Shown: positions 3-38,771 of the stretch, piece by piece | Layout of the letters: each line of letters opens with the position of its first letter | Numbering within the stretch: position 1 is the stretch's first letter | Source of the DNA: an uncultured Gemmatimonadales bacterium | GTDB lineage: Bacteria; Gemmatimonadota; Gemmatimonadetes; Longimicrobiales; RSA9 | DNA: 64,000 bases | Assembly: GCA_963708135.1 (NCBI GenBank) | Contig: OY970192.1 | Coordinates: 4,096,001-4,160,000 of the forward strand | Direction: 5' to 3' | Translations under genes and position numbers: made by a program | The notes under the pieces: generated by a model | Seen by the model: only the letters and a program-made list of their open reading frames with translations | The model's database searches: none | Told to the model about the DNA's origin: nothing

Positions 3-1640
3 GCGCTCGCCCGCGACCTCTTCGGCGGCGTCCCGGCCTCGGCAAGGCAGGCGGAAGCGGAAGCAGCGGTCGCCGCACGGTGGATGGCGGAGGTCGAGGC
101 CACGCGAGCGTCGCTCGCGGACAAGGGCGCTCTCCCGTTCTTCAGCTTCGGGGTCCACTTCGCGGAGGGGGGAACCGGCGGCTTCGACCTGATCCTCTCG
201 AACCCGCCCTGGGTGCGGGCGCGCCGCTGGCCGGCCGCCGTGGGCCGGCTCGTGCGCACCCGCTACGAGGTCTGCCGCGCGCCCGGCTGGCGTCCCGGCG
301 CCGCGGCCGCGGGCGCTCCTGCGGCGGCGGGTGGGCAGATCGACCTGGCGCTGCTGTTCCTCGAGCGCGCGCTCGGGCTGCTCGCGCCGGGCGGGACGCT
401 CGGCATGGTGCTCCCCGCCAAGGCGCTCCGCTCGCTGTACGGCGCCGGCGGCCGCCGGCTCCTGGTCCGGGGCACGCGCCTCGTCGCCATCGAGGACCAC
501 AGCCTGGACCAGCGCTCGATCTTCCGCGCCGATGCGTTCGCGGCCACGGTGGTGGCGGTGCGGGCCGGGGCCGACACGGGCCGGGGTGGCGGAGCGCTGG
601 GCGCGGGCGGCCCCACCCGCGTCTCCGCCGTCCGCGTCACCATGGTCCGCCGGGATGTCGCGCCGCTCCGCTTCGCGGTCTCGCAGGACGAGCTGCCGCT
701 CGTTCCCGGCGACGTCGACGCGCCGTGGCTGCTGGCGCCGCCGGAGGCATTGGCGGCGCTGCGTCGCATGCAGGCGGCGGGACCGCCGCTCACGGCCGGG
801 ACCGGGCTGCGGGTGCGGCGCGGCATCGTGACGGGCGCGAACGACGTGCTGCTCGTCCCGCACGCGGAGGCCAAGCTCGGCGGGCTCGCGCGGATCCGGG
901 CGCTCGGGGCGAGGAACCAGGCGGCGCCGGCGTTCCAGGCGATGATCGAGGCCGACGCCCTGCGCCCGCTCGTGCGCGGCGCCGGCATCGAGGCATGGAG
1001 CTACCGGGCGGCCGGCCACCTCGTCTGGACGCACGACGACGAGAGCGCCGCGCCGCACCCTCCGCCGCCCCGTGCCGCGCGCTATCTGGCCCGCCACGAC
1101 GCGGCGCTGCGCGCGCGCTCCGGCTGGCACCCCGCCCTCCCCGACGGCGCCGTGTTCAGGGTCACGCCCGACACGCTGCGGCCCAAGGTGGCCTGGCACG
1201 ACCTCTCCGACACGCTGAAGGCGGTCGCGCTGCCGGCGCGGGTGCGGGGCGTGGACGGCCGCGAGCGCCCGCTCATCCCGCTGAACACGGTCTACTTCAT
1301 CCCGGTGGACGACGCGGCCACGGCCCAACTCCTGGCGGCCTACATGAACTCGCTGCCCGTCCGGACCTTCGCCCGGGCCGTGGCGGAGCGCGCCAAGGAC
1401 GCGCGCTTCCGTTTCTTCGCGTGGTGCGTTGCGATGATTCCCCTTCCGGACCGCTGGAGCCGGGGCCCCGCCGCTGCCCGGCTGCTCGCCCTCTCGGCCG
1501 AGGCGCACCGCGCCGGCTGCCTCGCCCCGGAGCGCGCCGCCGAGCTGGACCGGCTCGTGGCGGCGTCCTACCGGCTGGAGCCCGAGCACGTGCAGGCGCT
1601 CGCCCATTTCGACGCCTGGCTTCGCGGGGTGGCGACGTGA
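3..1640 (+). CDS. N6-adenine DNA methyltransferase (Eco57I/TaqI-like, C-terminal part; 5' end outside window)
   Basis: Frame open from nt 3. Motif IV context 'HFAEGGTGGFDLILSNPPWVR', 'DLALLFLERALGLLAPGGTLGMVLP', and a TaqI-like specificity region ('RRGIVTGAND', 'PLNTVYFIP', 'YMNSLPVR'). Confidence 0.85.
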   Translation, partial: ALARDLFGGVPASARQAEAEAAVAARWMAEVEATRASLADKGALPFFSFGVHFAEGGTGGFDLILSNPPWVRARRWPAAVGRLVRTRYEVCRAPGWRPGAAAAGAPAAAGGQIDLALLFLERALGLLAPGGTLGMVLPAKALRSLYGAGGRRLLVRGTRLVAIEDHSLDQRSIFRADAFAATVVAVRAGADTGRGGGALGAGGPTRVSAVRVTMVRRDVAPLRFAVSQDELPLVPGDVDAPWLLAPPEALAALRRMQAAGPPLTAGTGLRVRRGIVTGANDVLLVPHAEAKLGGLARIRALGARNQAAPAFQAMIEADALRPLVRGAGIEAWSYRAAGHLVWTHDDESAAPHPPPPRAARYLARHDAALRARSGWHPALPDGAVFRVTPDTLRPKVAWHDLSDTLKAVALPARVRGVDGRERPLIPLNTVYFIPVDDAATAQLLAAYMNSLPVRTFARAVAERAKDARFRFFAWCVAMIPLPDRWSRGPAAARLLALSAEAHRAGCLAPERAAELDRLVAASYRLEPEHVQALAHFDAWLRGVAT

Positions 1641-4600
1641 ACGGCCCCGCGCCGCCGGTGCCCGCCATACCGCCGGTGCTCCTCCTGGACGAGCGCCGCG
1701 CACCCTCGCTGCGCGACTTCCTGGGCCCCGTGCTCGCCGGGGCGGCGGCGGCGGACTTCGCCATCACGCGCGTTCGGCTGGCCGCCGTCGATCTCGAGCC
1801 GGACGAACTCGCGGGGCTGGTGCGCTGCCGGCTGCTGCTCGGCCGCGTGGACGCGCAGACGCTGGCCGGCACGGAGCGCGACGCCGCCATCCGCCGGGAG
1901 CACGCCCGCCGCCTCCATGGCCTGCGCGCGCTGCTCGCCGCCGGCGCCATCGAGGTGCGCGCCGCCGGAACCGCTGCATGGAGCCCCGACTTCTCGGTTG
2001 TCCACGGCGGCGCGCGCGCCGCTCCCGAGCCGCGCCTCGCCCTGCTGGGCGCTCATTACTTCGCGCGCCCGTTCCCGGTCGGCGGGCCCGCGCTGACCTG
2101 CGTGCTCCGCGACGCCGGCGTGGCACGCTCGTTCGCGGACCGCTTCGAGGAGCTCTGGCGCCGCGGCTACGACATCGCCGCCGTGATCGATGATGCCCTG
2201 GCCCGCATGGCGCCGGGAGGGGAGACGCCGGCGGTGCGGGAGGCCGCGGCGCTCTACCGCGCCGGCGCCGGGAGCATAGCAGAGAAGGCCGGCAGCGAAC
2301 GCACCTTGAAGGACCCCGGCGCCGGACCCGGCGCGGCTCGCCCGCGCGCCGAGCGCACCGCCGGCCGGGGTCTGACACCGGGCGCGCAACCGGATGCCGG
2401 CGGGGGCGATGCCGCCGGGGGGGCGCCTGTCGCCCCGCGCGACGGGTCCGACCGCGGGAAGGGAGGCGCCGCGGCGGCCGTCCTCCGGTGTATGCTCCTG
2501 TCCCGGTTCGGCCCGCCGCCATCGGTCGGCGGGCCGCCGGGCGAGGCGCGCCCGCTGTTCGACCTGGCGGCGTTCCAGCACGAGGCGGTCGAGCGCGCTG
2601 CGACGGCGCTGGCGGCGTGGCGTGGCGTCGTCATCGCGGACGCCGTCGGGCTCGGCAAGACGTACGTCGCGCTAGCGCTGATCGAGCGCGCGGTGCGGGC
2701 CGGCCGGCGCGCCGCCGTGATCGGGCCGGCGGCGCTCCGGAACGAGTGGACGCGGCCGCTCCGGCGGCTGCGGGACGCGTGCGGCTGCGCCTCGATCGGT
2801 CTCGGCGGCGAGGATGGCGGAGGCGCGCCGGCGACGGGCGGCGGGCTCGTCGCCTGGCTGACGCACGCCCGACTCAGCCGCGGCTCCCACCGCCCGGAGC
2901 GCCTGCTCCCGCTGGACCTGGTGGTGGTGGACGAGGCGCACGCGTTCCGCTCGGAGCGCACGCGCCGCTACCACGCGCTGGCGGAGCTCTGCCGGGACGC
3001 GCGCGTCGTGCTGCTCACCGCCACGCCCGTGAACAACGCGCCCGGAGATCTCCGCGCGCTGCTGCGCCTGTTCGCCGCCGATGGCGCGTTCCGCGACGCC
3101 GGCGTGCCGTCGCTCGCGGAGGCGTTCGCGGCGGGGGCGGGCGGCGATGTGGGGCCCGTGCCCATCGCGCGGGTGCTCGAGCGCGTCATGATCCGGCGGA
3201 CGCGGCCGTTCGTGCGCGAGCGCCACGGCGGCGTGCTGCTGCCGGACGGCCGGCGGCTGGCGTTCCCGCGGCGCGCGCCGCCCGTGGCCGTGCGCTACAC
3301 GCTCGATGATGCCCTGCCGGGGTTCGCCGCCGAGGCCGTCGCGCGGATCGAGGCGCTGGCGTTCGCGCCGCTTCGCCTGGGCGCCTACGGCGACGATGCC
3401 GCCGAGGGCGCCGGCGCCGCCGACCTGCTGCGCGTCCACCTGCTCAAGCGGCTCGAGTCCAGCGCCGCCGCGTTCGAGGCGACGCTGCGCCACCAGATCC
3501 GCTTCCTGGAGGCGTTCCTCGATGCCCTCCATCGCGGACGGCTACTCGCCCCGCGCGAGCACGCCGGCCTCCATGCCGGAGACCGGGACGCCGTGCAGCT
3601 CTCGCTCGACACCCTCGTGCTCCGCCGCCTGCCGCCCCGCCTCGAGGTCGAGCGCCTCGATGGCGACGCCGGCGCCGACCTCCACGCCCTGCGCGGCCTC
3701 GCCCGCGCCCTGGCCGGGGCGCCGCCCGGGACGGATCCCAAGCTCGCGGCGCTGCGGACTCTGCTCGACGGCCCGCTCGCCGGCGAGAAGGTGCTCGTCT
3801 TCACCGAGTTCCGCGACACGGCCCGCCACCTCTGGCGCGCGCTGGCGGAGCGCGGTCACGTCGCCCTCATCGACGGCGGCGGCGCTTTCCTCGGCCGGAG
3901 CCCCGCCGGCCGGCGCGAGGTCATCGCCCGCTTCGCGCCGCGCGCGAACGGCCGCCCCGAGCCGCCGCCTCGCGAGCGCGTGGATCTCCTCATCGCCACC
4001 GACGTGCTCTCCGAAGGCCTCAACCTCCAGGACGCGCGCCGGGTGGTCAGCTACGACCTGCCCTGGAACCCCGTACGGCTCATCCAGCGGATCGGCCGGA
4101 TCGACCGCCTCGGCTCCTCCCACGAGACCGTCTACACCTACCATTTCCTCCCCGAGCACGGCCTCGAGCATGCGCTCCGCCTGCTCGAGCGCCTGCGCCG
4201 GAAGATCGTCGCCATCGGCCGGACCGTCGGCGGCGAGGACTCGCCGCTAGCGGGGAGAGGGGCCGGGGCGGCGTGGGCACGCCGCGGCGGGAAGGAGGAG
4301 GCCGGCGGCGGAGGGGTCGGGCAGCTCGAGCCCGGCGCCGGCGCCTCTCTCCTCGACCGCCTGGCCGCCGGCGACCCCGACGTCCTCGACGACATCGAGC
4401 GCGCCGACGCCGCGCCCTTCGAGGCGGAAGAGCGGCTGCGCGCGGCGTGGCGGGCGCTGGCCGCCGGGCAGGATCACAGCCGTGCGGAGATGCACGGCGC
4501 GCCGGAGGTGGCGAAAGGGACCGCAACAGAGCCGGGCGCGCGAGCGCCCGGGGGGGCGGACCGTGACACCGCGGCGGAGACCGGACAGGCGGCCGGTTTG

Positions 4601-5362
4601 GACGTCGCCATCCCGACCGCATCGATGACGCTGGAGGGAAGACACCGGCTGCTGCTGGCACTCGCCGCGGGCGAGGAGAAGCGCTGGCTGGTCTACGATG
4701 TGGCGGACGCGAGGATCGATGCCGACCCGAGGGCCGCGGACGTGCTCGCCGCGGTCGCGCTGGAGCGGGCGCCGTCCGCCGGACTGGAGCGCATGGAAGC
4801 CGCCCCACGCCCGGAAGGCGGGAGCACGGACCGCCTGCCGCCGGCGGGCCCCGCCTCGGACGTGCGGCCGCGCGCCAGCCGCGTCTCGTGGAGGGAGCCG
4901 GTGCCGGACCGGCGACTCCTGGATGGCGCCACCGCCGCGGCGGAGCGAGCGCTTCGAGCCGAGCCTCTCGCCCGGCGCCTGTCGCCGCCCGCCCATCGCT
5001 CGCCCGCCGCCCGCGCCGCACGCCGGGCGATCGGCCTCCTCGCGGCGCTGCCCGGCGGCCCGGACGCGGCGCTCTGCGCGCGGGCCGACGCTGCCCTCGG
5101 GGCCCTCGAGCGGGTCCGCGATGCGGGGACCGAGACCGCGATCGCCGCGCTGCTCGACGGTAAGCTCCGCGGGACCGAGGCCGAGGCCGCGGAGGCGTTC
5201 CTGGGCGGACTCGAAGCCGTCCTTCCGGCGCCGCCGGAGGACGGCGGGAGCGTCGCCTCGAAGGCCCTCCCGTGGCAGCTCATGGCCGCGCTCGAGGTGG
5301 TCCCGCCGGGCGGGCGGCGCGGGCCGTCGGGGGGCCACATCCGGGCATGTGCGTCCGGTTGA
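1637..5362 (+). CDS. SNF2-family helicase with degenerate N-terminal PLD-like domain
   Basis: GTG at 1637 overlaps the MTase TGA (GTGA). Motifs IADAVGLGKT, DEAH, LTATP, KVLVFTEFRDTA, ATDVLSEGLNLQ and YDLPWNPVRLIQRIGRIDR. Confidence 0.85.
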   Translation: MNGPAPPVPAIPPVLLLDERRAPSLRDFLGPVLAGAAAADFAITRVRLAAVDLEPDELAGLVRCRLLLGRVDAQTLAGTERDAAIRREHARRLHGLRALLAAGAIEVRAAGTAAWSPDFSVVHGGARAAPEPRLALLGAHYFARPFPVGGPALTCVLRDAGVARSFADRFEELWRRGYDIAAVIDDALARMAPGGETPAVREAAALYRAGAGSIAEKAGSERTLKDPGAGPGAARPRAERTAGRGLTPGAQPDAGGGDAAGGAPVAPRDGSDRGKGGAAAAVLRCMLLSRFGPPPSVGGPPGEARPLFDLAAFQHEAVERAATALAAWRGVVIADAVGLGKTYVALALIERAVRAGRRAAVIGPAALRNEWTRPLRRLRDACGCASIGLGGEDGGGAPATGGGLVAWLTHARLSRGSHRPERLLPLDLVVVDEAHAFRSERTRRYHALAELCRDARVVLLTATPVNNAPGDLRALLRLFAADGAFRDAGVPSLAEAFAAGAGGDVGPVPIARVLERVMIRRTRPFVRERHGGVLLPDGRRLAFPRRAPPVAVRYTLDDALPGFAAEAVARIEALAFAPLRLGAYGDDAAEGAGAADLLRVHLLKRLESSAAAFEATLRHQIRFLEAFLDALHRGRLLAPREHAGLHAGDRDAVQLSLDTLVLRRLPPRLEVERLDGDAGADLHALRGLARALAGAPPGTDPKLAALRTLLDGPLAGEKVLVFTEFRDTARHLWRALAERGHVALIDGGGAFLGRSPAGRREVIARFAPRANGRPEPPPRERVDLLIATDVLSEGLNLQDARRVVSYDLPWNPVRLIQRIGRIDRLGSSHETVYTYHFLPEHGLEHALRLLERLRRKIVAIGRTVGGEDSPLAGRGAGAAWARRGGKEEAGGGGVGQLEPGAGASLLDRLAAGDPDVLDDIERADAAPFEAEERLRAAWRALAAGQDHSRAEMHGAPEVAKGTATEPGARAPGGADRDTAAETGQAAGLDVAIPTASMTLEGRHRLLLALAAGEEKRWLVYDVADARIDADPRAADVLAAVALERAPSAGLERMEAAPRPEGGSTDRLPPAGPASDVRPRASRVSWREPVPDRRLLDGATAAAERALRAEPLARRLSPPAHRSPAARAARRAIGLLAALPGGPDAALCARADAALGALERVRDAGTETAIAALLDGKLRGTEAEAAEAFLGGLEAVLPAPPEDGGSVASKALPWQLMAALEVVPPGGRRGPSGGHIRACASG

Positions 5363-5402: not shown

Positions 5403-5475
5403 TCCCGCGTAGCTCAGTTGGTAGAGCAGATGACTGTTAATCATCGGGTCGCAGGTTCGAGTCCTGCCGCGGGAG
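5403..5475 (+). tRNA. tRNA-Asn(GTT)
   Basis: Acceptor stem TCCCGCG/CGCGGGA, D arm AGCTCAGTTGGTAGAGC, anticodon arm GATGA-CTGTTAA-TCATC, T arm GCAGGTTCGAGTCCTGC. CCA is not encoded. Confidence 0.97.
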
Positions 5476-5480
5476 CTGAC

Positions 5481-5530: not shown

Positions 5531-6315
5531 CGTTGCGATTTCCCGATGCCGCTCGCGGGCCCTCCGGGGGCAACGTTCCCCCCCAATGCGCGCGCGTCGC
5601 GCGCTCATTCTTCCCGCTCTTATCCGTCTCGTCGGCGCCACGGCTCATGTTCTCCTCCCGGATCGCACGGTATCGGAGCCGGCGGGCAACTGCAAGGCCC
5701 GCTTCGGATGGGACGCCGCACCGCCACCGCTCGCGGGCGCGACCGCATGAGCCGGTGCTCTCCGGCCCGACGCAGGAACGAAAAGTCGGGGCGACCGGCT
5801 CTCCCGGCCCCCGACCCCGTGGACTGCCCAAAGCTGGTTTCAGCGGGACGCGGGTCCGAGAGAGATCGGCAGACGGGGAGAGCGTCCCAGTTCTCGGCTG
5901 AAGCCACTTCACGCGCTGCCGTGACGGTCGGATTTCGGGCCCGTCGCGGGGTCGGGCAGGCGCACGTGCGGACCCCACGGACGGCGGGCTTGGTTTTGTT
6001 CATGGTCGTTACCCACGCTAGGACGCAGGTTGAATCGCTCAGCTCCTGAGGCTGAATCTAGGTCTGAGGCCCCGCCACAAGGCCCGGGTGGGCCTCGGAC
6101 GAGCGAGCATTCGTTCTCCGATCTCCCTGGTCAGAGCCGGCGCCGTGGTGAGCTCGCGCGTTGTGGAGCTGGCTGGCACCCCGCGGGGGGTGAAGATGGG
6201 GCAAGAGTCTCGGAGGCCCTCGTGTTGATTGGCCGGCGTGCGGAGTTCGTAGTGGCGCGCTCTCGGCGTCGACTCGGCGTCTGGTCCCCGGAGCCGCCCG
6301 ACCGGGGGGGAGGAC

Positions 6316-6597
6316 GTGATCGCACGGGTTCGAGCGCCGCCGCCCGGCGCCGAGGTATTCACGAGCGCCATCGCGGCGAACCTCCAGCTCCTGTGTCCCG
6401 AATGCCACATGAACAAGACACTGGCGTCACTCGCGCCCGTGAGTCCCGACGTGGAGGGGTTCGTAGCCATGAAGCTGAAGGCGCACGAGCTGCGACGGCG
6501 GTCCGAGGCCAAACGGCCCCTTCGGGAGTGCGACGATCAGGAGCGCTGGAATACGATCCAGCGTGGTTTAATGGACGAGAGGCGCGCGGGCTGCTGA
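6316..6597 (+). pseudogene. HNH endonuclease C-terminal fragment
   Basis: 'ANLQLLCPECHMNKT' matches the second half of an HNH motif. The first half (CxxC...DH) is not visible upstream. Confidence 0.45.
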
Positions 6598-6614: not shown

Positions 6615-7100
6615 TCAGCGGAAGCGAATCTCTACGACCGGGTGCAGCTCGATCGCGTTCGGCGCGAGGCCGCGCTGGTAGTCGCGGAAATCGAAGAATG
6701 CGGCGCCCGTAACGCGGACGCTCGACGGCCGAATGAACTCGGCGTAGCCGGCCGGCGCCGGTCCGAGTGCCCGCTCGACGGCGTGGCGCGCGCCTGTGAA
6801 CGAAGCGTGAAGGCTCGCCAGCGCGCCGAAGGCGCAGTCCGCGCGCGGGATCTCGGCGATCAGCGTGGTCTTCCGCGTGCCGAGCGCGAGAACCAGGTGC
6901 AGGTCGCCATCCTCCAACGAGGTCCGCCTCGACGGTGCAGACGACGCGCTCCGCCGCGGCGCCCGCGCGCAGGCCGGCGGCGTCGGTCAGGAGCTCCAGG
7001 ACGGCGATCCGGAAATCAGAAAGCGCCGGGTGCGGTTCGATCCGAAGGAGATCCAGGCGGCGCTAGACCCAGACACTGCCGAGGTCCTCGACCGAGGCCC
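6615..7100 (-). pseudogene. degraded conserved hypothetical (OB-fold-like) protein
   Basis: 6615-6917 reads 'EDGDLHLVL..LIAEIP..C..VRVTGAAFFDF..QRGLAPNAIELHPV'. A protein-like upstream part ('ERVVCTVEADLVG') lies in another frame and contains a stop. The 5' boundary is approximate. Confidence 0.45.
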
Positions 7101-7552
7101 CGTCGTCTCCGAACGGCGCGAAAGTCCGCTCTGCGGCCGACACGAAGTCATCATGGTCCGCGCCCTCCGCCGCGTTCGTGATCAGATCGAGGAGAACCGG
7201 AGGTACGGGGCGGCGTGAGGGCGCCAAGCGCCGGCACGTCCGCACCGGGGTCGCGCAAGCGGGTCACGCACCCGTGTAGCCCGAACACCCGGGCATCAAC
7301 TGCGGCGCAAGCACCGGCACCGTGTTTCCCCCTCGGCGGGACGGGTCGGACCGACCGTCTGGCCTCCCTTCCGACGCGCCCCTCGACGAGAAGCCGCCGC
7401 CCCGGCGCCGCCCCTGAGCTTCGTCCAGCCGTTTTTCCGCTTCTACAGTTGATGGCACGGCCGACGGACGAGGGCGGAGCATGGCGCACCGCTGCCTGTC
7501 GGTTCGTCACCCAACCCGGGGAGCACGCTCCCGAAACCGAAGGGAGGTATCC

Positions 7553-8101
7553 ATGCCCGTCCATGCACGCGCCGCAACCGCGACGGTGGCCCTGGCACTC
7601 GCGCTGGTGGCCTGCAACGACACCGTCACGCCGGACGCACCCGCCGTACAGGCTCCCCGCGCCGACGTGGCCGCGAGCAGCGGCGGCGACCACGCGCTCG
7701 TCAACGGCAGCGAGATCCAGTGGGGGCCGGCGCTTCCCTGCTTCCCGGCGGGCGCGGAGCTGGCCGTGGTCGGGGGCAATCCGTTCGAGGCCGGGAAGGT
7801 CTGGACCGTCCGACTCCTCCTCCCGAGCGGTTCCGCGATCGACCCGCACTGGCATCCCACGGACGAGAACGTCACCGTGCTGAGCGGCACGCTCCTGTTC
7901 GGCCACGGGGAGCACTTCGACGAGACCACGATGACCGCGTACGGCAGGGGCGGGTTCTTCACGGCGCCCGCGGGCATGCCTCACTACGTGCAGGCGGTCG
8001 GTCGCACCGAGGTCCAGGTCCACGGGGTGGGACCCTTCGCCCTCGTGTACGTGGAGCATACCCACGGCAACATCCCGGACTGCCCGGTGCCTGCGTCCTG
8101 A
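7553..8101 (+). CDS. cupin-domain lipoprotein (DUF4437-like)
   Basis: RBS GGAGG, lipobox LALVAC, cupin motifs PHWHPTDENVTVLSG and PAGMPH. Confidence 0.8.
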   Translation: MPVHARAATATVALALALVACNDTVTPDAPAVQAPRADVAASSGGDHALVNGSEIQWGPALPCFPAGAELAVVGGNPFEAGKVWTVRLLLPSGSAIDPHWHPTDENVTVLSGTLLFGHGEHFDETTMTAYGRGGFFTAPAGMPHYVQAVGRTEVQVHGVGPFALVYVEHTHGNIPDCPVPAS

Positions 8102-8121
8102 AGGGGAGGAGCCCGGTGGGT

Positions 8122-8156
8122 CCCGGGGGGCGGCCGCCCATCGGCCGCCCCCCGGG
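8122..8156 (+). terminator. GC-rich hairpin after cupin gene
   Basis: 15-bp perfect inverted repeat CCCGGGGGGCGGCCG/CGGCCGCCCCCCGGG. No U-tract. Confidence 0.5.
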
Positions 8157-8368
8157 CTACGCAGCCCGCGGATCACGGCGGAGCCCCTCGAATCCCGGCT
8201 CGACCCGCGCACGCGGTACACATCGGTACACATCGGATGCCGCTGCCGCACCGACGCCGGTCCCCTCCGGTACGGCTCTTGATCAGAGGCCCGGCGTGAG
8301 GGCAGGCGGGGCTCGCGGCCGGCACGGCCGGCGCGGCTCCGCATGGCGATCTCCGACGCGAGGAGCCG

Positions 8369-9664
8369 ATGGCCACCGGGCAGCGCGGGGCGGAGCGGAA
8401 GTCGGTCTGGGAGCTGTTCACGGAGCGGCGCATGGTGGCGCTGCTGCTGCTCGGCTTCTCCTCGGGCATGCCGCTCTACCTCATGACGCGGACGCTCCAG
8501 GCGTGGATGACGGTGGCGAAGGTGGACCTCGGCACCATCGGCTTCTTCAGCCTGGCCGCGCTCCCCGTCTCGCTCAAGTTCCTGTGGGCGCCCGTCCTCG
8601 ACCGCTACGTGCCGCCGATCCTCGGGCGCCGGCGCGGCTGGCTGCTGATCACGCAGGTGGCGCTGCTCATCGCGATCGCGGCCATGGGGCTGCACGACCC
8701 GCGCATCGGGCTGGCGGCGCTGGCCGCGAACACGGTGCTGATCGCGTTCCTCAGCGCGTCGCAGGACATCGTGGGCGACGCGTACCGCACCGACCTGCTC
8801 GAGGAGCGGGCCATGGGCGCCGGCGCGGCCGTGTGGGTGCTCGGCTACCGCATCGCGCTCCTCGTCACCGGCTCGCTCGCCTTCGTGCTCGCCGACCACA
8901 TCGGCTGGCGGCTGACCTACGCGCTCATGTCGCTGCTCATGCTGGTGGGCATCGTCACGGACTTCTGGGCGCCGGAGCCCGCGGGCGAGAACCGGCCCCC
9001 GGCCAGCCTCTACCAGGCCGTGTGGCTGCCCTTCCGCGACTTCTTCCAGCGCGCCGGGACCTGGACCGCGATCCTCATCCTGGTCTTCGTCGTCCTCTAC
9101 AAGCTGCCCGACAACCTGGCCATCGGCATGTCCACGCCGTTCCTGCTCCAGATGGGGTTCACGGAGACGGAGATCGGCACGGTGGTGGGCGCGGTCGGGC
9201 TGGGCGCGACGATCGTGGGGTCGCTGGTGGGCGGCGGGGTGGTGGAGCGGCTGGCGCTGAACCGCTCGCTGTGGGTGGTGCTGGTGGGACAGGCGCTCAG
9301 CCAGCTCGGCTACCTCGCCCTCGCCCTGCGCGGCCACAGCTTCCCGTTCATGGTCGCGGCGGTCGTGCTCGAGAACTTCGTCTACGGCATGGTGACCACC
9401 GTCTTCATCGCCTACCTCATGAGCCTGTGCAGCAAGCGCTTCTCGGCCACGCAGTACGCCCTGCTGTCGAGCCTCATGGCGGTGAGCCGCGACCTCTTCA
9501 TCTCGCCGGCGGGAGAGCTGGCCAAGGCGACCGGCTGGTCCGGCTTCTTCCTGGTCGCGCTCGTCTCCGGCATCCCGCCGCTCCTCATGCTGCCCTGGCT
9601 CGCCCCCTGGCGCGGCGAGCACCCCACGGGCGCCGCGGAGCACACGGGGGCGCAGGCGGCCTGA
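8369..9664 (+). CDS. ampG: AmpG-family muropeptide MFS transporter
   Basis: LLGFSSGMP, LKFLWAPVLDRY, GRRRGW, SASQDIVGDAYR and FSATQYALLSSL. Confidence 0.88.
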   Translation: MATGQRGAERKSVWELFTERRMVALLLLGFSSGMPLYLMTRTLQAWMTVAKVDLGTIGFFSLAALPVSLKFLWAPVLDRYVPPILGRRRGWLLITQVALLIAIAAMGLHDPRIGLAALAANTVLIAFLSASQDIVGDAYRTDLLEERAMGAGAAVWVLGYRIALLVTGSLAFVLADHIGWRLTYALMSLLMLVGIVTDFWAPEPAGENRPPASLYQAVWLPFRDFFQRAGTWTAILILVFVVLYKLPDNLAIGMSTPFLLQMGFTETEIGTVVGAVGLGATIVGSLVGGGVVERLALNRSLWVVLVGQALSQLGYLALALRGHSFPFMVAAVVLENFVYGMVTTVFIAYLMSLCSKRFSATQYALLSSLMAVSRDLFISPAGELAKATGWSGFFLVALVSGIPPLLMLPWLAPWRGEHPTGAAEHTGAQAA

Positions 9665-9738
9665 GGCGAGGCGCCCCCGTGGCCCGCGCCCGCCGCGGGG
9701 GCGCGCGCGGGCGGCGAGGCGCGCGGCGGCGACGTCGC

Positions 9739-11175
9739 CTACGGCACCTTCTTCGCGGTGGCGTCCTGCCCGCCCTGGTGCAGCACCACGGCCGAGACGG
9801 CACCCGCCGAGTCGGTGACGAAAGTGAACTGCGCGTCCACCTCCTTCGCGAAGAAGTCCTTCTCGCCGTAGGGCCAGATGCGCAGCTTGCCCTGCCCGGT
9901 CGGCTGCACGTAGAGCGCGTCGCCCGCACGCGTGACCACGAGCTGGAAGCTCGGCGCGAGCTCGTACGTGCCGACGAAGCGCCCGAGCGCATCCGAGGAG
10001 AGCGCGATCACCGGGAACTGCCTGGCCGGGGCCGGCGCCGGCGCGAGCGGGATGGTCGGGTCCAGCAGGTGGAAGCCAATGTCGTCCGCGCCTGCCCCGC
10101 CGGTGTTCGTCAGCACCACCACGGCGACCTTCCGGACCGGGTCCATGCCGACGAAGCTGCGGTAGCCGCCGGTGCCGCCGTTGTGCCAGACGATGTCCAT
10201 GGCGCCCCGGTGCAGGATGAGCCAGTTCAGGCCGATGCCGGTGCCGGGGATCGTCGTCTTTGCGCGCTCCTGGTGGGAGAAGGCCATGGCCTTCCCCAGC
10301 GGCCCGCGCTCCGGATGCAGGCTGGCATCGAGGAACTTCAGCATGTCGCTCGCGGTCGAGCGGATGGCGCCCGCCCCCGCCAGCGTCGGGATGTCCCAGT
10401 TCGAGACCACCTTCCCCTGCTCGTCGTGGCCGAGCGCCAGGTGCTGCTTCATCCACGGCGTGAAGGTGATCGCGGTGTGCGACATGCCGAGCGGCTTCCA
10501 GACGCGCTCCCGCACCATCTCCTCGTACGACTTGCCGGCGCGCAGCGCCAGCGCGTGGCCGAGCAGGCCCACGCCGAGGTTCGAGTACTCGAACTTCTCG
10601 CCCGGGTCGCGCGTGAGCTGGTACCCCGACAGGAAGTCGTACAGCTGCTGGACCGTGTAGTCCCTGTACGGGTTCTGCGGGTCCTTCGGGTGGAAGTTGT
10701 CCGGCATCCGCGGCAGCCCCGAGTTCTGCTCCGAAAGCTCGCCGAGGGTGATCTGCCTCCCGTCCCGCGTCGGCATCGTTACGCCCGCCGGCAGGTACTT
10801 CTGCACCGGGTCGTCCAGCGCCACCTGACCCCTGCCCACCATGTCCGCCAGCACCGTGGCCGTGAACACCTTCGAGACCGAGCCGATCTCGAACACCGTG
10901 TTCGCGTCGAGCGCCGGCTGACCCTTGCCCGGGTCGCCCCAGGCGACGACGCGTGTCTTGCCGCCCGGCTCGAGCAGCCCCACCACGATCCCCGCGCTCC
11001 GCTTCTCCGCCACGCGCTGCTTGAGGATCGAGAGCACCGCCGAGTCGGGCGGAAAGCCCTCCACGGGCCCGACCTGCGCGCGGCCGGCCGAGGGGCCCAG
11101 CAGGCCGGCGGCGAGCAGCGAGAGGAGCGCGGCCAGCGGCGCGCGCCGGCATCGGCGGGTCGGGATACGGCTCAT
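9739..11175 (-). CDS. serine hydrolase (class C beta-lactamase/D-Ala-D-Ala carboxypeptidase fold) with C-terminal DUF3471-like domain
   Basis: Signal peptide, FEIGSVSK (SxxK), YSN and WHNGGTGG. Confidence 0.88.
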   Translation of the reverse strand: MSRIPTRRCRRAPLAALLSLLAAGLLGPSAGRAQVGPVEGFPPDSAVLSILKQRVAEKRSAGIVVGLLEPGGKTRVVAWGDPGKGQPALDANTVFEIGSVSKVFTATVLADMVGRGQVALDDPVQKYLPAGVTMPTRDGRQITLGELSEQNSGLPRMPDNFHPKDPQNPYRDYTVQQLYDFLSGYQLTRDPGEKFEYSNLGVGLLGHALALRAGKSYEEMVRERVWKPLGMSHTAITFTPWMKQHLALGHDEQGKVVSNWDIPTLAGAGAIRSTASDMLKFLDASLHPERGPLGKAMAFSHQERAKTTIPGTGIGLNWLILHRGAMDIVWHNGGTGGYRSFVGMDPVRKVAVVVLTNTGGAGADDIGFHLLDPTIPLAPAPAPARQFPVIALSSDALGRFVGTYELAPSFQLVVTRAGDALYVQPTGQGKLRIWPYGEKDFFAKEVDAQFTFVTDSAGAVSAVVLHQGGQDATAKKVP

Positions 11176-11243
11176 GGGAGTCCTCCACGGCGGGGGCCCG
11201 GGACGCCTGGATGGACGGTCCCGGAGGTGCCTGCGTCCGGCTG

Positions 11244-11520
11244 TTGTATACAGAATAGCGGCGCGGGCCGAAGCCGGGCAACGCCCGCCGGCATGGAGGC
11301 TGTTGGTGCGCGCGCCGCCGCGCCCTATCTTGGGCCCTGGCCTCCGCGCCGCCGCGCGGCCGGCGGAGCAAGCCCCCGGTTCCCCCGCCGGCCGCGCCAC
11401 CACTCCCGACCAGACGCTCAGAGCACACCGCCGCAGATCGAGCAGCGTGCATCCGGGCCGGACGCCGACGCTCCCTGTCCCGCGCGCCGCCAGCGGTTCG
11501 GGATCGTCGGCTGTATACAG
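11244..11520. promoter_or_regulatory. two TGTATACA palindromes (GntR/FadR-type operator candidates)
   Basis: TTGTATACAG at 11244-11253 and CTGTATACAG at 11511-11520 in the divergent intergenic region. Confidence 0.55.
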
Positions 11521-11614
11521 AGGTGGCGCGGGGAGCCGGGCGCGACCGGCGGCCGCCGCGCACCGACGGACCCGCTGGTCCGTTCCCTGTGCGAGTCCGA
11601 CTCGAGGAGGTCCG

Positions 11615-12631
11615 ATGATCGTCGATGTCCACAACCACTACTTCCCTCCCGAGTTCCTGGACGCGGTCCGGCGCGGACCCAGCCGGTTCCGCGTCACGGA
11701 GGACGCGGATGGCAACCCGGTCCTCCACTCGCCCGGCGACTACAACGTGGCGGTGCGCGGGCACCGGGACATCGGCTACCGCGCGGGCGTGCTGGAGGCG
11801 GCGGGCGTGGACACGCAGCTGCTCAGCTTCACGGCTCCGGGGACGACGATCGAGACGCCGGAGCGGGCGGTCGAGCTGGCCGCGCTGGTGAACGACTGCC
11901 TGGCGGCCGTGGTCGCCGAGCGCTCGCCCCGCTTCGCGGCGCTGGCCACCCTGCCGCTCACGGTCCCCGAGGCCGCCGCCGCGGAGCTCGAGCGCGCGAT
12001 GGGCAGCCTCCACCTCCCGGGGGCGATGCTCTACGGCAACGCGGCCGGCGTGCCGCTCGCCGACGACCGATTCCGCCCGCTCTGGGAGTCCGCCGACGCC
12101 CGCGGCGCCGTGCTCTACATCCACCCGACCTACCCGCTCGGCGTCGAGGCGATGACCAGCTACATGCTGATGCCCCTCGTCGGCTTCCTCTTCGACACCA
12201 CCCTTGCCGCCGCTCACCTGGTCTTCGCCGGGATCCCCGAGCGCTACCCGCGCATCCGCTGGGTGCTCGGCCACCTCGGCGGCGCCATCCCCTACCTCGC
12301 CGAGCGCCTGGACCGCGGCTTCACGGCCTTTCCGGTCTGCCGCGCGCACCTCTCCCGACGGCCCAGCGAGGTGCTGCGCGAGTTCTACTACGACACCGTC
12401 AACTTCGACCCCGCCGCGCTGCGCCTTGCCCTCGGCTTCGCCGGGCCGCGCCAGATCCTGGCCGGCAGCGACTACCCGCACATGATCGGCAGCATCGAGG
12501 GCATGCTCTCGAGCATCCGCGGGCTCGACCTCCCCGCCGATCAGCAGATGGCCGTCCTCGGCGCAAACGCCGCGCGGCTGCTGGGGCTGGACGGGCGCGG
12601 CGCCGACGCGCGGCCACTACCGGCCCGCTGA
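11615..12631 (+). CDS. amidohydrolase_2 family protein (ACMSD/aromatic decarboxylase-like)
   Basis: IVDVHNH, LYIHP, GHLGG and AGSDYPH. Confidence 0.88.
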   Translation: MIVDVHNHYFPPEFLDAVRRGPSRFRVTEDADGNPVLHSPGDYNVAVRGHRDIGYRAGVLEAAGVDTQLLSFTAPGTTIETPERAVELAALVNDCLAAVVAERSPRFAALATLPLTVPEAAAAELERAMGSLHLPGAMLYGNAAGVPLADDRFRPLWESADARGAVLYIHPTYPLGVEAMTSYMLMPLVGFLFDTTLAAAHLVFAGIPERYPRIRWVLGHLGGAIPYLAERLDRGFTAFPVCRAHLSRRPSEVLREFYYDTVNFDPAALRLALGFAGPRQILAGSDYPHMIGSIEGMLSSIRGLDLPADQQMAVLGANAARLLGLDGRGADARPLPAR

Positions 12632-12894
12632 GGCATGCCCGGCGCGCGTCTGTTCGACCGGCACTTCGTCCCGCTCAGCAGGGGCAGCCGGTCAGCCGAA
12701 TAGGCAACCAGGCCTTCCTCGTAGCGTCGATGTTCCGGACCATGCGCGCCGCCGGGTCCGCGCGCGGCTTCCTGGCCGTCGAGCCCGCACCAAAGCCGGG
12801 GCCGGCCGCCTCCGAGCCGGCCCCGCCCGCCCCCGTCGAAAGCGTATCAATTTCCTGAGGAGCGGGAGGTCTGCGACACTCCGGCCGCCGCCCC

Positions 12895-29180: not shown

Positions 29181-30468
29181 CACGGGCGCACCGGAATCCG
29201 CTGAAGATCTGGCGCCGGATCGGGAAATCCCAGTTGCGGAAGGTGTTGCGGATGGCGCCCGAGCGCGTCGCCCACGAGCCACCCCGCAGCACCCGGTACT
29301 CGGCCCCGAAGAACGCCTCGGAGTACTCGCGGTAGGGGAAGCTCTGGAACCCCGGGTAGCCGCGGAACTCGCTGGCGGTCCACTCCCAGACGTCGCCGAT
29401 CATGCCGTGGCAGCCGATGGGGGAGACGCCACGCGGGTAGGCGCCGACAGGCGCGGTATCGAAGGCGAGCTGGTCGAGGTTGGCGCGAAGCGGAGTCGGT
29501 GCCGCGTCGCCCCACGGGTAGGCGCGCTTCTCCCCACGCTCCGGGTCCCACGAGGCCGCGGCCTCCCACTCGAGCTCCGTCGGGAGCCGCTTGCGCGCAA
29601 AGCGCGCATACGCCTCCGCCTCGTGGAAGCAGACGTGGCAGACGGGGCGCAGCGGGTCCAGCGGCCGACTCCGGTCCATGAAGCGCTCCCTCCAGCCGTC
29701 GGACGCATCGGTCCACCCCTTCGGCGCGCGGACCCCCGCCTCCTGCAGCCAGCCCCAGCCCGCCTCCGACCACAGCTCCCGGCGCCCGTAGCCGTCCGTG
29801 TCCATGAACTCCAGGTACTCGCCGTTGCTGACCGGAGCGGCATCGATCCAGAACGGGGGCAGCTCCACGCTGTGGCGCGGGCGCTCGTTGTCGTAGGCTG
29901 CCGTGCGGTCGTCGGTACCGATCTCGACCACGCCGCCCGGGAAGCGCACCATGGCACCGGACTCGAGAGAGAGGCGCCGGCCGGGCACGTCGCGCGTGCG
30001 GGGCGCGGCGTAGGGGATGCCCTGCTTCAGCTGGAGCGTCTGAAGGATCGTCTCGTCGTGCTGGTACTCGTGCTGCAGCACCATCTCGTAGACGTAGCCG
30101 CCGCGAAGCAGGGGCTCATCGGCCGCGAGGTCCACCGCGTCCAGCGCGTCGAGCACACGGCCGCGGATCTCCGCGAGAAGCGCCACCATCTCGACCTTTC
30201 CGGGCAGCGGCAGGCCGCCTCGGACGGCGCGCGGGTTCTCGAACGGGTTGTAGACGCCGGGCATCTCCACGAACTCGACCGGTCCGGCGAGGTTCCGCAC
30301 GAGCCAGAGCTCCTCGAAGTGCGCGATGTGACCGAGATCCCACAGGATCGGGCTCATGAGCACGTCGTGCTGGAGCCGCAGGTCCGGCTCCGTGAGGGCG
30401 GACACCAGCAGCAGGGTGCGCGTTCGCGCCTCCGTCAGGCGCTCTGCGATCCGGTCCCGCAGCTCCAT
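29173..30468 (-). CDS. egtB: ergothioneine sulfoxide synthase
   Basis: [19 protein letters not shown] (iron ligands), FGE-sulfatase domain, [19 protein letters not shown]. Confidence 0.92.
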
Positions 30469-30670
30469 GCTCCTCCCCGTTCCACTGGTCGGCTCCGGAC
30501 CGGCAACCTACCCCGGTCCGCCGCCCGCGCAAACGCTTCGAGGCGTCGGGCGTCCCGAGCGGAACGCGCGGGCGCCGATGGCCGGTTCCCGCCCGACGCA
30601 ACCTTGGCGCCGGGCTGCGCGTGGCCCATCATGGACGCGTCCGGCAGCCCTCCCGAGGAGCGACACGCGC

Positions 30671-31432
30671 ATGGCCGAGCAGCCCGAGAACGGCGGTACC
30701 CCCGTGCTGGAGGCGCGGGGCGTCTCCCGCACGTACGGGAGAGTAGCCGCGCTCGACGGCGTGTCCCTCTCCGTCTCGCGGGGCGAGAGCGTCGCGCTCG
30801 TCGGGGAGAGCGGCGCGGGCAAGAGCACGCTTCTGCGCTGCTTCAACCGCATGGTCGAGCCGGACGCCGGCCAGGTGTTCGTGGACGGCACCGACGTCCG
30901 GGAGGCCGACCCGGTCGCGCTCCGTCGCCGCATCGGATACGTGCAGCAGGAGGGTGGGCTGCTCCCTCACTGGCGCGTGGGGCGGAACGTCGCACTGGTG
31001 CCCTGGCTCCGCCACGATCCCGCAGGCGCCGCCGCCGCCGCGCGCGCCCTCGACCTCGTCGGGCTGCCGGCCGCCGAGTTCGCCCGGCGCTGGCCCGCCG
31101 AGCTCTCCGGTGGGCAGCGGCAGCGGGTCGCGATCGCCCGCGCGCTCGCGGCCGAGCCGCGCATCGTGCTGCTCGACGAGCCGTTCGGCGCGCTGGACGC
31201 GCTCACCCGCGCCGAGCTGCAGGAGGCCTTCGCCGCGCTCCGCCGCGCCCTGGGCGTCACCACGCTGCTCGTCACCCACGACCTCCGCGAGGCCTTCCTG
31301 CTGGCCGACCGCATCGCCGTCCTGCGCGCCGGCCGGCTCGAGCAGGTGGGTACGCCGGAGGCGCTCCGGGCCGCGCCCGCAACGGACTACGTCCGCCGCC
31401 TGCTCGCCATGACGCGCGTGGGGGGCGCGTGA
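30671..31432 (+). CDS. ABC transporter ATPase (ProV/OpuBA family)
   Basis: [27 protein letters not shown] and [10 protein letters not shown]. Confidence 0.9.
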
Positions 31433-38629: not shown

Positions 38630-38771
38630 TTCATCTGGGACAATGTGAGGCCGGGCAGCCGTATCGACCTGGATCCCGGGCGCCACTGGCGCCGGCCGGT
38701 CGGACGCGGTTCCCGGCCTCACGCGTGATGGCCACCTCGGATGGCGGCCGATACTCGTTTCAGGAGAACGT

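Follow-up and report, generated by a model that had tools for sequence, protein, structure and literature searches.

A methylase-SNF2 helicase cassette beside tRNA-Asn in Gemmatimonadota carries a phospholipase D fold stripped of its catalytic residues: a possible nuclease-less descendant of a restriction-like system

What does a DNA methylase do beside a DNA motor whose nuclease domain has lost the residues that cut? This question is raised by a cassette at the beginning of the window, a 64-kb stretch of contig OY970192.1 (coordinates are window positions unless they carry a locus number). The preliminary description of this DNA had noted an N6-adenine methylase with the motif NPPW, whose stop codon overlaps the GTG start codon of an SNF2 helicase, directly upstream of a tRNA-Asn gene, and all of these lie where it had put them. 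The answer given here is tentative and is built from three observations. First, as far as the sampled sequences go, the catalytic His, Lys, and Asn of the phospholipase D (PLD) domain at the helicase's N terminus have been lost family-wide, and WxPDF(S/T) stands in their place. Second, no other nuclease is detectable by sequence analysis in the cassette or in the flanks of related loci. Third, in many diverged Gemmatimonadota the chromosomal position of the cassette is fixed, with housekeeping genes around it. We favor the reading that the locus is a nuclease-less descendant of a restriction-like system composed of an HKD-SNF2 helicase and a methylase, now with a host role and inherited vertically, and we give this reading a probability of roughly 0.45. 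Together, its proteins probably mark and track DNA but do not cleave it. The features of the cassette are as follows, with lengths in amino acids (aa).

3..1640, + strand: methylase fragment, the C-terminal 545 aa; open reading frame (ORF) open at its 5′ end, with motif IV NPPW, the target-recognition region, and the C-terminal domain
201..212, + strand: NPPW, catalytic motif IV, methylase aa 67 to 70
1637..1640, + strand: GTGA, in which the helicase GTG at 1637 overlaps the methylase TGA (1638 to 1640), a translational-coupling layout
1637..5362 including the stop codon, + strand: 1,241-aa fusion protein with pseudo-PLD, Ala/Gly/Pro-rich linker, RapA-like SNF2 ATPase, and weakly conserved C terminus
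1637..2212, + strand: pseudo-PLD N-terminal domain (N-domain), aa 1 to 192, a predicted PLD fold without HxK/SxN
1979..1996, + strand: WSPDFS, aa 115 to 120, the family signature where HxK was lost; sits at the predicted dimer interface
2048..2062, + strand: GAHYF, aa 138 to 142, where GSxN was lost; the Gly is invariant, and the His is common but not invariant
2219..2536, + strand: low-complexity linker, aa ~195 to 300, with Ala or Gly at 45 of 106 residues; most relatives have a gene boundary at this point
2561..4234, + strand: SNF2/superfamily 2 (SF2) ATPase core, aa 309 to 866, with Walker A GLGKT, DEAH, TATP, and motif VI QRIGRIDRLG intact
4238..5359, + strand: helicase C-terminal ~370 aa, with no family match; a conserved acidic stretch at aa ~909 to 935, then poor conservation
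5403..5476, + strand: tRNA-Asn (GTT), 40 nucleotides (nt) past the helicase stop codon; the conserved downstream neighbor of the cassette

The helicase N terminus has a PLD fold without its catalytic residues

From the strings IEVRAAG, WSPDFSVV, LALLGAHYF, and FADRFEELW in the translation, the helicase N terminus had been suspected to be PLD-like, and three kinds of evidence agree on this. First, an hhalign comparison of 30 N-domains of the dead-PLD family (alignment A2) with the PLDc_2 N termini of 21 distant homologs gave a probability of 95.9% and an E value of 5.5e-9 over 165 columns. Second, an AlphaFold2 model of the N-domain, made from A2, reached a predicted local distance difference test score (pLDDT) of 89.1 and a predicted template modeling score of 0.86. 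Third, a Foldseek search with this model returned 55 PDB matches at an E value of ≤1e-3, and all 38 matches listed at this threshold were PLD-family folds, with template modeling (TM) scores of 0.46 to 0.62. The folds listed included FAM83 DUF1669/BJ-TSA-9, TrmBL2, Zucchini, F13 of vaccinia, PPK, SauUSI, Nuc, NgoAVII, PLD3/4, and NucT. The top structural matches among them were FAM83 DUF1669 (5qhm; E value, 5.2e-6; TM score, 0.62) and TrmBL2 (5bpd; E value, 1.2e-5), and the PLD-helicase restriction enzyme SauUSI matched with a TM score of 0.61. By these models, the N-terminal ~190 residues of the helicase are a PLD fold.

The FAM83 DUF1669 domain and the C-terminal domain of TrmBL2 are non-catalytic PLD-like domains, their folds kept for binding. 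They are the best structural matches but share just 11 to 13% identity with the N-domain in the structural alignments, have no detectable sequence relationship to it, and differ in their partners and biology. Pfam gave no family, PLDc_2 included, at an E value of ≤10 for either aa 1 to 200 or the helicase C terminus (aa 868 to 1241), and a sequence-profile search of the PDB with the N-domain gave nothing significant (best E value, 0.27). A TIR-like alignment of the N-domain (E value, 0.46) was discarded as chance.

The lost residues can be read by comparison with relatives of the helicase, of which a word-indexed search found 405 at an E value of ≤1e-3 among 8,000 scored candidates. Close relatives (40 to 53% identity; the named ones belong to Gemmatimonadota/Longimicrobiales) share the N-terminal ~190 aa, and many relatives are ~850- to 900-aa forms without it. 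Distant relatives (~1,060 aa, ~35 to 37% identity) carry Pfam PLDc_2, which in the five distant forms checked is N-terminal (residues ~11 to 200) and reads FLHGKAY...SANLT. In an ungapped comparison with this sequence, the His corresponds to S116, the Lys to D118, and SxN to A139/Y141. The window reads S116-P117-D118 for HxK and A139-H140-Y141 for SxN, which bears out the earlier suggestion that the positions expected for HxK and GSxN had become SPD and GAHY.

The same loss was found throughout the family. The A2 profile was used in a full HMMER scan of 1.84 billion cluster representatives, which gave 270 proteins at an E value of ≤1e-3 and 135 at ≤1e-30, and the best 150 were inspected for motifs. 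HxKxxxxD was present in none of them (0/150). The motif W-x-P-[DE]-[FIL]-[SCA] was present in 133 of the 150, the other 17 being near variants, and across the 133 motif matches the old catalytic-His position was occupied by 19 different residues. In A2, the W, P, D, and F of WxPDF were invariant (30/30), and so were Gly126, Thr142, Trp162, and Asp167. The His of GAHYF was replaced in several members, for instance in GAIYL, GSIYF, GALYF, GWLGL, and GNLGL. The mean column identity of the N-domain in A2 was 45%, the same as that of the whole helicase (45%). A domain as conserved as the helicase that carries it is kept by selection and is not decaying. All four named members among 16 inspected were labeled "hypothetical protein," and the ~190-aa WxPDF pseudo-PLD is an unannotated protein family with 270 cluster representatives.

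The former active site is predicted to form a dimer contact

A homodimer of the N-domain was predicted with a score of 0.66 (runs of 0.66, 0.68, and 0.61), compared to 0.01 for the best of three controls. The mark for a homodimer was reached by 20 of 30 solved same-chain pairs and by 1 of 23 solved single chains (rough counts, own alignment used). The runs agreed in at least 96% of contacts, and the partner pLDDT was at least 79. The predicted interface comprises A2 residues 101 to 107 (aa 113 to 119) and 125 to 127, that is, the WxPDF and G(A) motifs, and Pro105 (A2 numbering) touches Pro105 of the partner across the two-fold axis. PLD nucleases pair two half-sites, and the N-domain is predicted to pair through the same region. 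In MtsD of MANTIS, two PLD domains associate above two ATPase domains and form one active site, as in BfiI, and MtsD resembles SauUSI. If the model is right, a role in holding the dimer together would explain why these residues of the old active site are newly invariant.

The methylase and the motor keep their motifs

The methylase fragment matched Pfam Eco57I (3.8e-11) and the PADLOC model REase_MTase_IIG (3.5e-26) at model positions 602 to 1053 of 1,100. Because the alignment begins at model position 602, ~550 to 620 N-terminal aa of the methylase should lie outside the window. Full-length homologs have ORFs of 1,029 to 1,250 aa in 24 of 28 complete group-A ORFs; the other four are 1,252 to 1,670 aa when read from stop to stop. 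Pfam recognized MmeI_hel (the helical spacer), MmeI_Mtase, N6_Mtase, and Eco57I in eight full-length homologs, and DUF1156 was absent from the results on these eight. The S-adenosylmethionine (SAM) motif LDPACGSGAF, which lies outside the window, and NPPW were invariant in 28/28 group-A homologs. On sequence grounds, the cassette methylase is a gamma-type, Eco57I/MmeI-type N6-adenine DNA methyltransferase. A side observation concerns the spacing of its motifs. In the methylase of locus L003 (L003:3726-7163, aa ~412 to 656), ~240 aa lie between the SAM motif (DPACGSGAF) and NPPW; this stretch in the methylase homologs holds an Ala/Arg/Glu-rich, coiled-coil-looking part, and the Pfam Eco57I model aligns across it.

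The helicase matched Pfam SNF2-rel_dom (6.6e-12) and Helicase_C (2.1e-18), and its Walker A, DEAH, and motif VI residues were invariant in 10/10 aligned sequences. Its best solved relative by sequence was RapA (2.5e-28). Judged by these matches, the helicase is a Swi2/Snf2 (RapA-like) SF2 ATPase.

The cassette is usually a trio at a fixed chromosomal place

A single scan of species-representative genomes gave 79 related loci; of its 599 candidate stretches, 231 were confirmed, and the 80 best were retained. By tblastn, 65 of the 79 have the methylase immediately upstream of the helicase and on its strand. Most of the 14 loci without a tblastn methylase have the helicase at the contig start, and a more distant methylase was found by clustering in L065 and L078. 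The methylase and helicase that the preliminary description had treated as a pair are hence conserved together, most of the misses being loci without upstream sequence. The word "pair" itself holds for the linkage of these two genes but not for the number of genes, since in most relatives the dead PLD is a gene of its own. The N-domain was present in 32 of the 79 loci. It was a separate ORF of ~190 aa between the methylase and the helicase in 24 of these, was fused to the helicase in 6 (and in the window), and could not be resolved in 2. The cassette is a trio in most relatives, and the fusion in the window is a minority form. The sizes of the best 150 family representatives follow the same trend, with 125 of 160 to 299 aa and only 9 of at least 900 aa.

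Among the 24 split loci, 6 have a helicase start codon that overlaps the stop codon of the N-domain (ATGA, GTGA, or TTGA), and the methylase-helicase junction of the window is coupled likewise. In four of the 24 (L002, L006, L008, and L050), the dead-PLD and helicase ORFs are in the same frame with a single TGA between them, which is at chance level for the frame.

A quick IQ-TREE tree of the ATPase core (62 rows, SH-aLRT supports, midpoint root) placed the 27 dead-PLD rows in one cluster with a support of 91. This cluster adjoins a cluster of 14 distant rows (cluster support, 100; support for the adjacency, 87), which are five Pfam PLDc_2 proteins and nine distant loci, of which L073 was the one checked for PLDc_2; L078 is not a row of the tree. 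The fused state is scattered in the tree and needs five changes, at least two of them forced by well-supported branches. A separate clade has no N-domain and is made up of seven Gemmatimonadota loci and the Planctomycetota locus L068 (six Gemmatimonadota rows plus L068 in the tree). Group B, a second Gemmatimonadota clade of 17 loci (e.g., L030:9371-10100), has a fused ~170-aa helicase N-domain with the motifs PEFLLFY, ALVFTG, and HRRPLVLHRLRERF. It aligns in register with the dead-PLD profile, but weakly (hhalign probability, 19.9%; E value, 1.1e-3), and was not called PLD; going by this alignment, it may be a further-diverged pseudo-PLD.

The neighborhood is conserved on both sides. Downstream, an ARAGORN scan of the 32 dead-PLD loci placed tRNA-Asn(GTT) behind the helicase in 18, or in 18 of the 25 informative ones; the distance to the helicase is ~15 to 82 nt in 17 loci and 1.4 kb in one. 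Upstream, a thymidine kinase and/or a tRNA-binding gene lies within a few kilobases in 18 group-A loci. The recurring flank genes are thymidine kinase (3.4e-49), a tRNA-binding-domain protein, and proline dehydrogenase, or else malic enzyme and gamma-glutamyltranspeptidase; further ones recognized by eye were sigma factors, a HAD phosphatase, an aminotransferase, and others. DrmA/DrmB, PglZ/BrxC, DUF499, and DUF3780 were not seen among the conserved flank clusters, either by eye or with Pfam. The same ARAGORN scan called two unusually long tRNAs, a tRNA-Gly of 93 nt within the coding region of the L002 methylase (L002:8688-8780) and a tRNA-Pro of 97 nt in L006 (L006:3952-4048); these calls are probably false positives in GC-rich DNA.

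The genomes concerned differ by ~50% in cassette protein identity and by 20 to 35% in thymidine kinase identity. Synteny kept across such divergence means that the arrangement is old, and the identities of methylase and helicase co-vary (Spearman coefficient, 0.90). The synteny suggests that the cassette is probably inherited vertically. A long residence had also been proposed before, from a GC content said to be host-like. The long residence is supported, by synteny and not by GC content; "host-like" is approximately true only, the cassette (0.774 to 0.784) being the most GC-rich part of the window, which elsewhere ranges from 0.676 to 0.752. Integrases usually insert at the 3′ side of tRNA genes. 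A mobile-island reading was rejected, since the cassette is on the 5′ side of tRNA-Asn, with its genes pointing toward the tRNA, and since the neighborhood is conserved on both sides.

Known methylase-helicase systems and the closest relatives

According to PMC12839542, Type-2 BREX-related (BR) systems have a DUF499 ATPase, an N6-methylase, an HKD-Swi2/Snf2 helicase, and DUF3780, and BR systems have a DUF1156-type methylase and a RapA-like helicase core. MANTIS/Gao_RL comprises MtsA to MtsD, and its ATPases help the methylase onto DNA. From the component lists, MANTIS/Gao_RL would be Type-2 BR, an identity stated in neither paper. The cassette resembles MtsD and the Type-2 BR helicases in having a PLD-fold domain followed by an SF2/SNF2 ATPase, beside an N6-adenine methylase, and it has a RapA-like helicase core as BR helicases have. 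Unlike MANTIS/BR, the HKD residues are absent (0/150) and the PLD is usually a separate gene; the methylase is of the Eco57I/MmeI type with its own recognition domain, not of the DUF1156 type; and neither a DUF499/AAA+ ATPase (MtsA) nor a DUF3780/MtsB-like gene was seen in the conserved flank clusters, in L073, or in L078. The absence of DUF499 and DUF3780 genes and the different type of methylase led to the rejection of MANTIS/Type-2 BR. PbeA is another example of an HKD-helicase beside a methylase (PMC10853773).

The preliminary description had drawn a comparison with DISARM and had given DrmD/DrmMI/DrmC as its core. This was mistaken, the core being DrmA/DrmB/DrmC, to which Class 1 DISARM adds DrmD and DrmMI. 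Like Class 1 DISARM, the cassette combines a PLD-family protein with an SNF2-like helicase and a large N6-adenine methylase; unlike DISARM, it shows neither DrmA nor DrmB (DUF1998), whether in the flanks of the related loci or on the downstream side of the cassette in the window. The best NCBIfam match of the helicase was DrmD (NF038317), with 164.1 bits compared to a cutoff of 610. DISARM was rejected for want of DrmA/DrmB and for the DrmD score below the cutoff. Of the proposed restriction-modification- or DISARM-like module without a nuclease, the restriction-like character stands and no nuclease was found; the likeness to DISARM does not extend to membership.

Type IIG/IIL enzymes (MmeI, Eco57I family) and BREX PglX are matched by the methylase homologs in having a helical spacer, a catalytic domain, and a C-terminal recognition region. 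Unlike Type IIG enzymes, the N-terminal domain of the homologs has no conserved catalytic residue and no match to a nuclease fold, and an ordinary Type IIG enzyme was rejected because the homologs have no nuclease domain.

One of the nearest relatives with an intact nuclease motif is L078, from a metagenome-assembled genome of Streptosporangiaceae. It is a two-gene HKD-intact relative, with a 1,312-aa Eco57I-type methylase and a 1,061-aa PLDc_2-SNF2 helicase. Relatives of this type share with the cassette the gene order, the adjacency, and the two protein families, the helicases being ~35 to 40% identical over the ATPase core; they differ in keeping FLHGKAY...SANLT and in belonging to other phyla. 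Literature searches turned up neither an experimental paper on this two-gene HKD-intact form nor any account of a Gemmatimonadota-wide version that is HKD-dead and DUF499-less, or of a standalone WxPDF family. The terms "inactive HKD," "iHKD," and "Gemmatimonad" occur 0 times in the main text of PMC12839542, whose supplements might list such variants.

A second HKD-intact form has three genes. The cyanobacterial and Dehalococcoidia loci have a 1.8-kb stretch between methylase and helicase, and in the cyanobacterial locus L073, the one annotated, an AAA_15/AAA_21 ATPase with DUF3226 lies between the methylase and the PLD-SNF2 helicase. L073 also has CoiA-nuclease-like and ParB-like genes upstream and looks like a larger defense locus (features at L073:1836-3626, 731-1672, and 7479-9308). 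The L078 module is adjoined by a 1,522-aa protein with a weak Sacsin-domain match and by a NOV_C-domain protein (L078:11685-16250 and 9483-10778 on the minus strand).

What the cassette may do

The favored reading proposes the following steps. The ancestor would have been an ATP-dependent two-gene system, in which an Eco57I/MmeI-type methylase with its own recognition domain worked with an HKD nuclease-SNF2 motor protein. The pseudo-PLD would have been kept for the dimerization that is normal in PLD nucleases, with residues of the former active site making a two-fold contact that pairs or organizes the SNF2 motors. The methylase would supply sequence recognition and mark adenines. The motor would act on DNA in a methylation-coupled way without cutting, either loading or activating the methylase or tracking from unmodified sites. 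The least confident step is the last one, namely, that the conserved position and the conserved recognition domain suggest an inherited host function and not a mobile defense island.

Several points weigh against this reading. Methylation, ATPase activity, dimerization, and any phenotype are all things that we infer. The 79 loci leave out the window's own genome, whose upstream genes and methylase N terminus lie outside the window. The synteny is not uniform: 7 of the 32 dead-PLD loci end too early for a tRNA-Asn call, 7 of the 25 informative ones have no tRNA-Asn, and a subclade of five loci adjoins malic enzyme instead, four of the five also with gamma-glutamyltranspeptidase upstream. The identity of thymidine kinase did not track that of the cassette (Spearman coefficient, 0.15; P = 0.26; 11 loci, a short protein, and low power), so that synteny is the sole carrier of the argument for vertical descent. 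The existence of a clade without the N-domain means that the domain is not indispensable to the methylase-helicase pair. The dimer score may stem from solved PLD dimers (Nuc, Zucchini, SauUSI) that the model has memorized, and such a prediction shows likeness, not binding. Finally, nuclease-independent defense exists, as in DISARM without drmC, which leaves room for a defense role here. BREX is another case of such defense.

What the favored reading would mean can be said in a few points. Methylase plus helicase-nuclease modules (DISARM, BREX-related systems, MANTIS) are a growing class of immunity in which the discrimination of self from nonself is still being worked out. Here, a lineage keeps the methylase and the motor under strong constraint and has discarded the nuclease chemistry in every sampled member. 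The cassette is in this sense a natural separation-of-function mutant. It can show how motor and methylase act when nothing is cleaved, and what use a PLD domain has other than catalysis; the predicted structures point to pairing. In a narrower form, the cassette would be a domesticated trio whose motor is needed for, or steered by, N6-adenine methylation, vertically inherited in Gemmatimonadota and not cutting foreign DNA. We hold this form to be rather doubtful. If true, it would be a bacterial counterpart of the coupling between SNF2 remodelers and DNA methyltransferases in eukaryotes, and a host epigenetic device of this kind would be a clear case of defense-to-housekeeping domestication.

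Among the alternatives, a non-cutting anti-phage or anti-plasmid system survives best, and we regard it as possible though on the unlikely side. In such a system, the methylase would mark self, and a methylase-guided motor paired through the pseudo-PLD would stall or strip the replication or transcription machinery, in a BREX-like manner. The closest relatives are restriction-like, with an HKD-SNF2 helicase beside an Eco57I-type methylase (L078, L073), and the best PADLOC matches were "HKD+Snf2" (7.4e-40) and DrmD (1.8e-37). In Class 1 DISARM, the PLD gene drmC is dispensable for protection, whereas drmD and drmMI matter for one phage, and PMC10853773 cites a report that PbeABCD acts without cleaving DNA. 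What speaks against defense is, first, the fixed place among housekeeping genes, with no defense neighbors. Second, the recognition domain is conserved and not diversified, with a mean pairwise identity of 0.37 to 0.75 per 40-aa block compared to 0.5 to 0.6 in the catalytic core, and it is still alignable to other Gemmatimonadota clades. The specificity domains of defense methylases, unlike this one, diversify rapidly. Third, the family has few members, essentially all in one phylum (270 representatives at an E value of ≤1e-3 of 1.84 billion).

An ordinary restriction system whose nuclease was missed, acting in trans, encoded upstream, or hidden in the methylase N-terminal domain or the helicase C terminus, is quite improbable. 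The opportunity for such an oversight exists, since the window begins inside the methylase and, according to PMC12839542, BR systems without a fused nuclease often have one nearby. The immediate neighbors in the homologous loci are, however, housekeeping genes or tRNA-Asn, and the question whether the upstream genes encode a nuclease was answered by the related loci in the negative. As for the missing 5′ part of the methylase, the nuclease part of Type IIG enzymes lies in the first ~150 to 180 model positions. The REase_MTase_IIG alignments of the homologs begin only at model positions ~176 to 200 (best match per homolog: L030, 7e-55; L005, 1.2e-44; L052, 1.1e-44; L007, 9.9e-36). The unmatched N-terminal ~160 aa, aligned from 28 loci (alignment A3), folds confidently in an AlphaFold2 model made from the homologs (pLDDT, 94.0) but matches nothing solved, with 0 PDB fold matches at an E value of ≤1e-3 (best TM score, ~0.3) and nothing significant in a sequence-profile search of the PDB (best E value, 0.18). 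A3 has one invariant column, a Gly, and six nearly invariant columns, which are Leu or Arg; no Asp, Glu, Lys, or His is conserved in the 28 domains. Judged from these homologs, the part of the methylase that the window lacks holds no nuclease fold and no conserved catalytic residue. The helicase C-terminal ~370 aa have no family, which would leave a hiding place, but their alignment has no nuclease-like or catalytic conserved pattern; an Atlas search gave a top score of 0.88 and, as the best match with a family, RapA_C at 0.86, which are leads only. The loss of the catalytic PLD residues in every sampled member (0/150) is also hard to square with selection for cutting by this protein.

It is very unlikely that the N-domain is still an enzyme with other residues, for example, the Asp of WxPDF and the His of GAHYF, acting on DNA or on a small phosphodiester. 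The concentration of conservation at the old active site, that is, the invariant WxPDF residues together with Gly126, Thr142, Trp162, and Asp167, is what one would expect of such an enzyme. Against it, the GAHYF His is replaced in several members and the position of the catalytic His varies widely; the predicted dimer contact buries the conserved residues; and the top structural matches are non-catalytic PLD-like domains. A decaying remnant of a defense system on its way to loss, as the lost nuclease residues, the clade without the N-domain, and an HNH gene remnant 3′ of the tRNA might suggest, is close to refuted by long and intact reading frames, invariant methylase and ATPase motifs, an N-domain as conserved as the helicase, and the retention of the cassette in dozens of species-level genomes differing by ~50% in protein identity.

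Other features of the window

No solid gene was found in the ~2 kb after tRNA-Asn, where the GC content is lower (~0.70). A short ORF there (6253..6597, + strand) contains just the C-terminal end of an HNH motif (NLQLLCPECH); the Pfam HNH match covers 15 residues with an E value of 0.0037 and 17.8 bits compared to a cutoff of 21.4, and the ORF, which lies on the 3′ side of tRNA-Asn, is by this match probably a remnant of an HNH gene. It is followed by a 123-aa stop-to-stop ORF (6615..6986, − strand) with a protein-like, non-repetitive sequence and no Pfam match.

Among 62 long ORFs taken from the remainder of the window, PADLOC matched two, at 30332..31429 (+ strand) and 38649..40007 (+ strand), both at least 25 kb from the cassette. 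One of the two ORFs is a partial mad3-like match (8.4e-30, residues 255 to 350), and the other is a DEAD-box-type helicase matching the DpdF/BrxHI models (~1e-24). As far as the sequences tell, the two probably represent generic domains rather than partners of the cassette.

Two overlapping ORFs of 1,776 aa (7151..12481, − strand) and 1,712 aa (7720..12858, + strand) have Arg/Gly/Ala/Pro-rich translations and, from this composition, are probably shadow frames of a high-GC region and not genes. The genes of this region are likely to be a cupin (7481..8101; Cupin_2, 2.8e-8) and a permease-like ORF recognized by eye (8369..9664).

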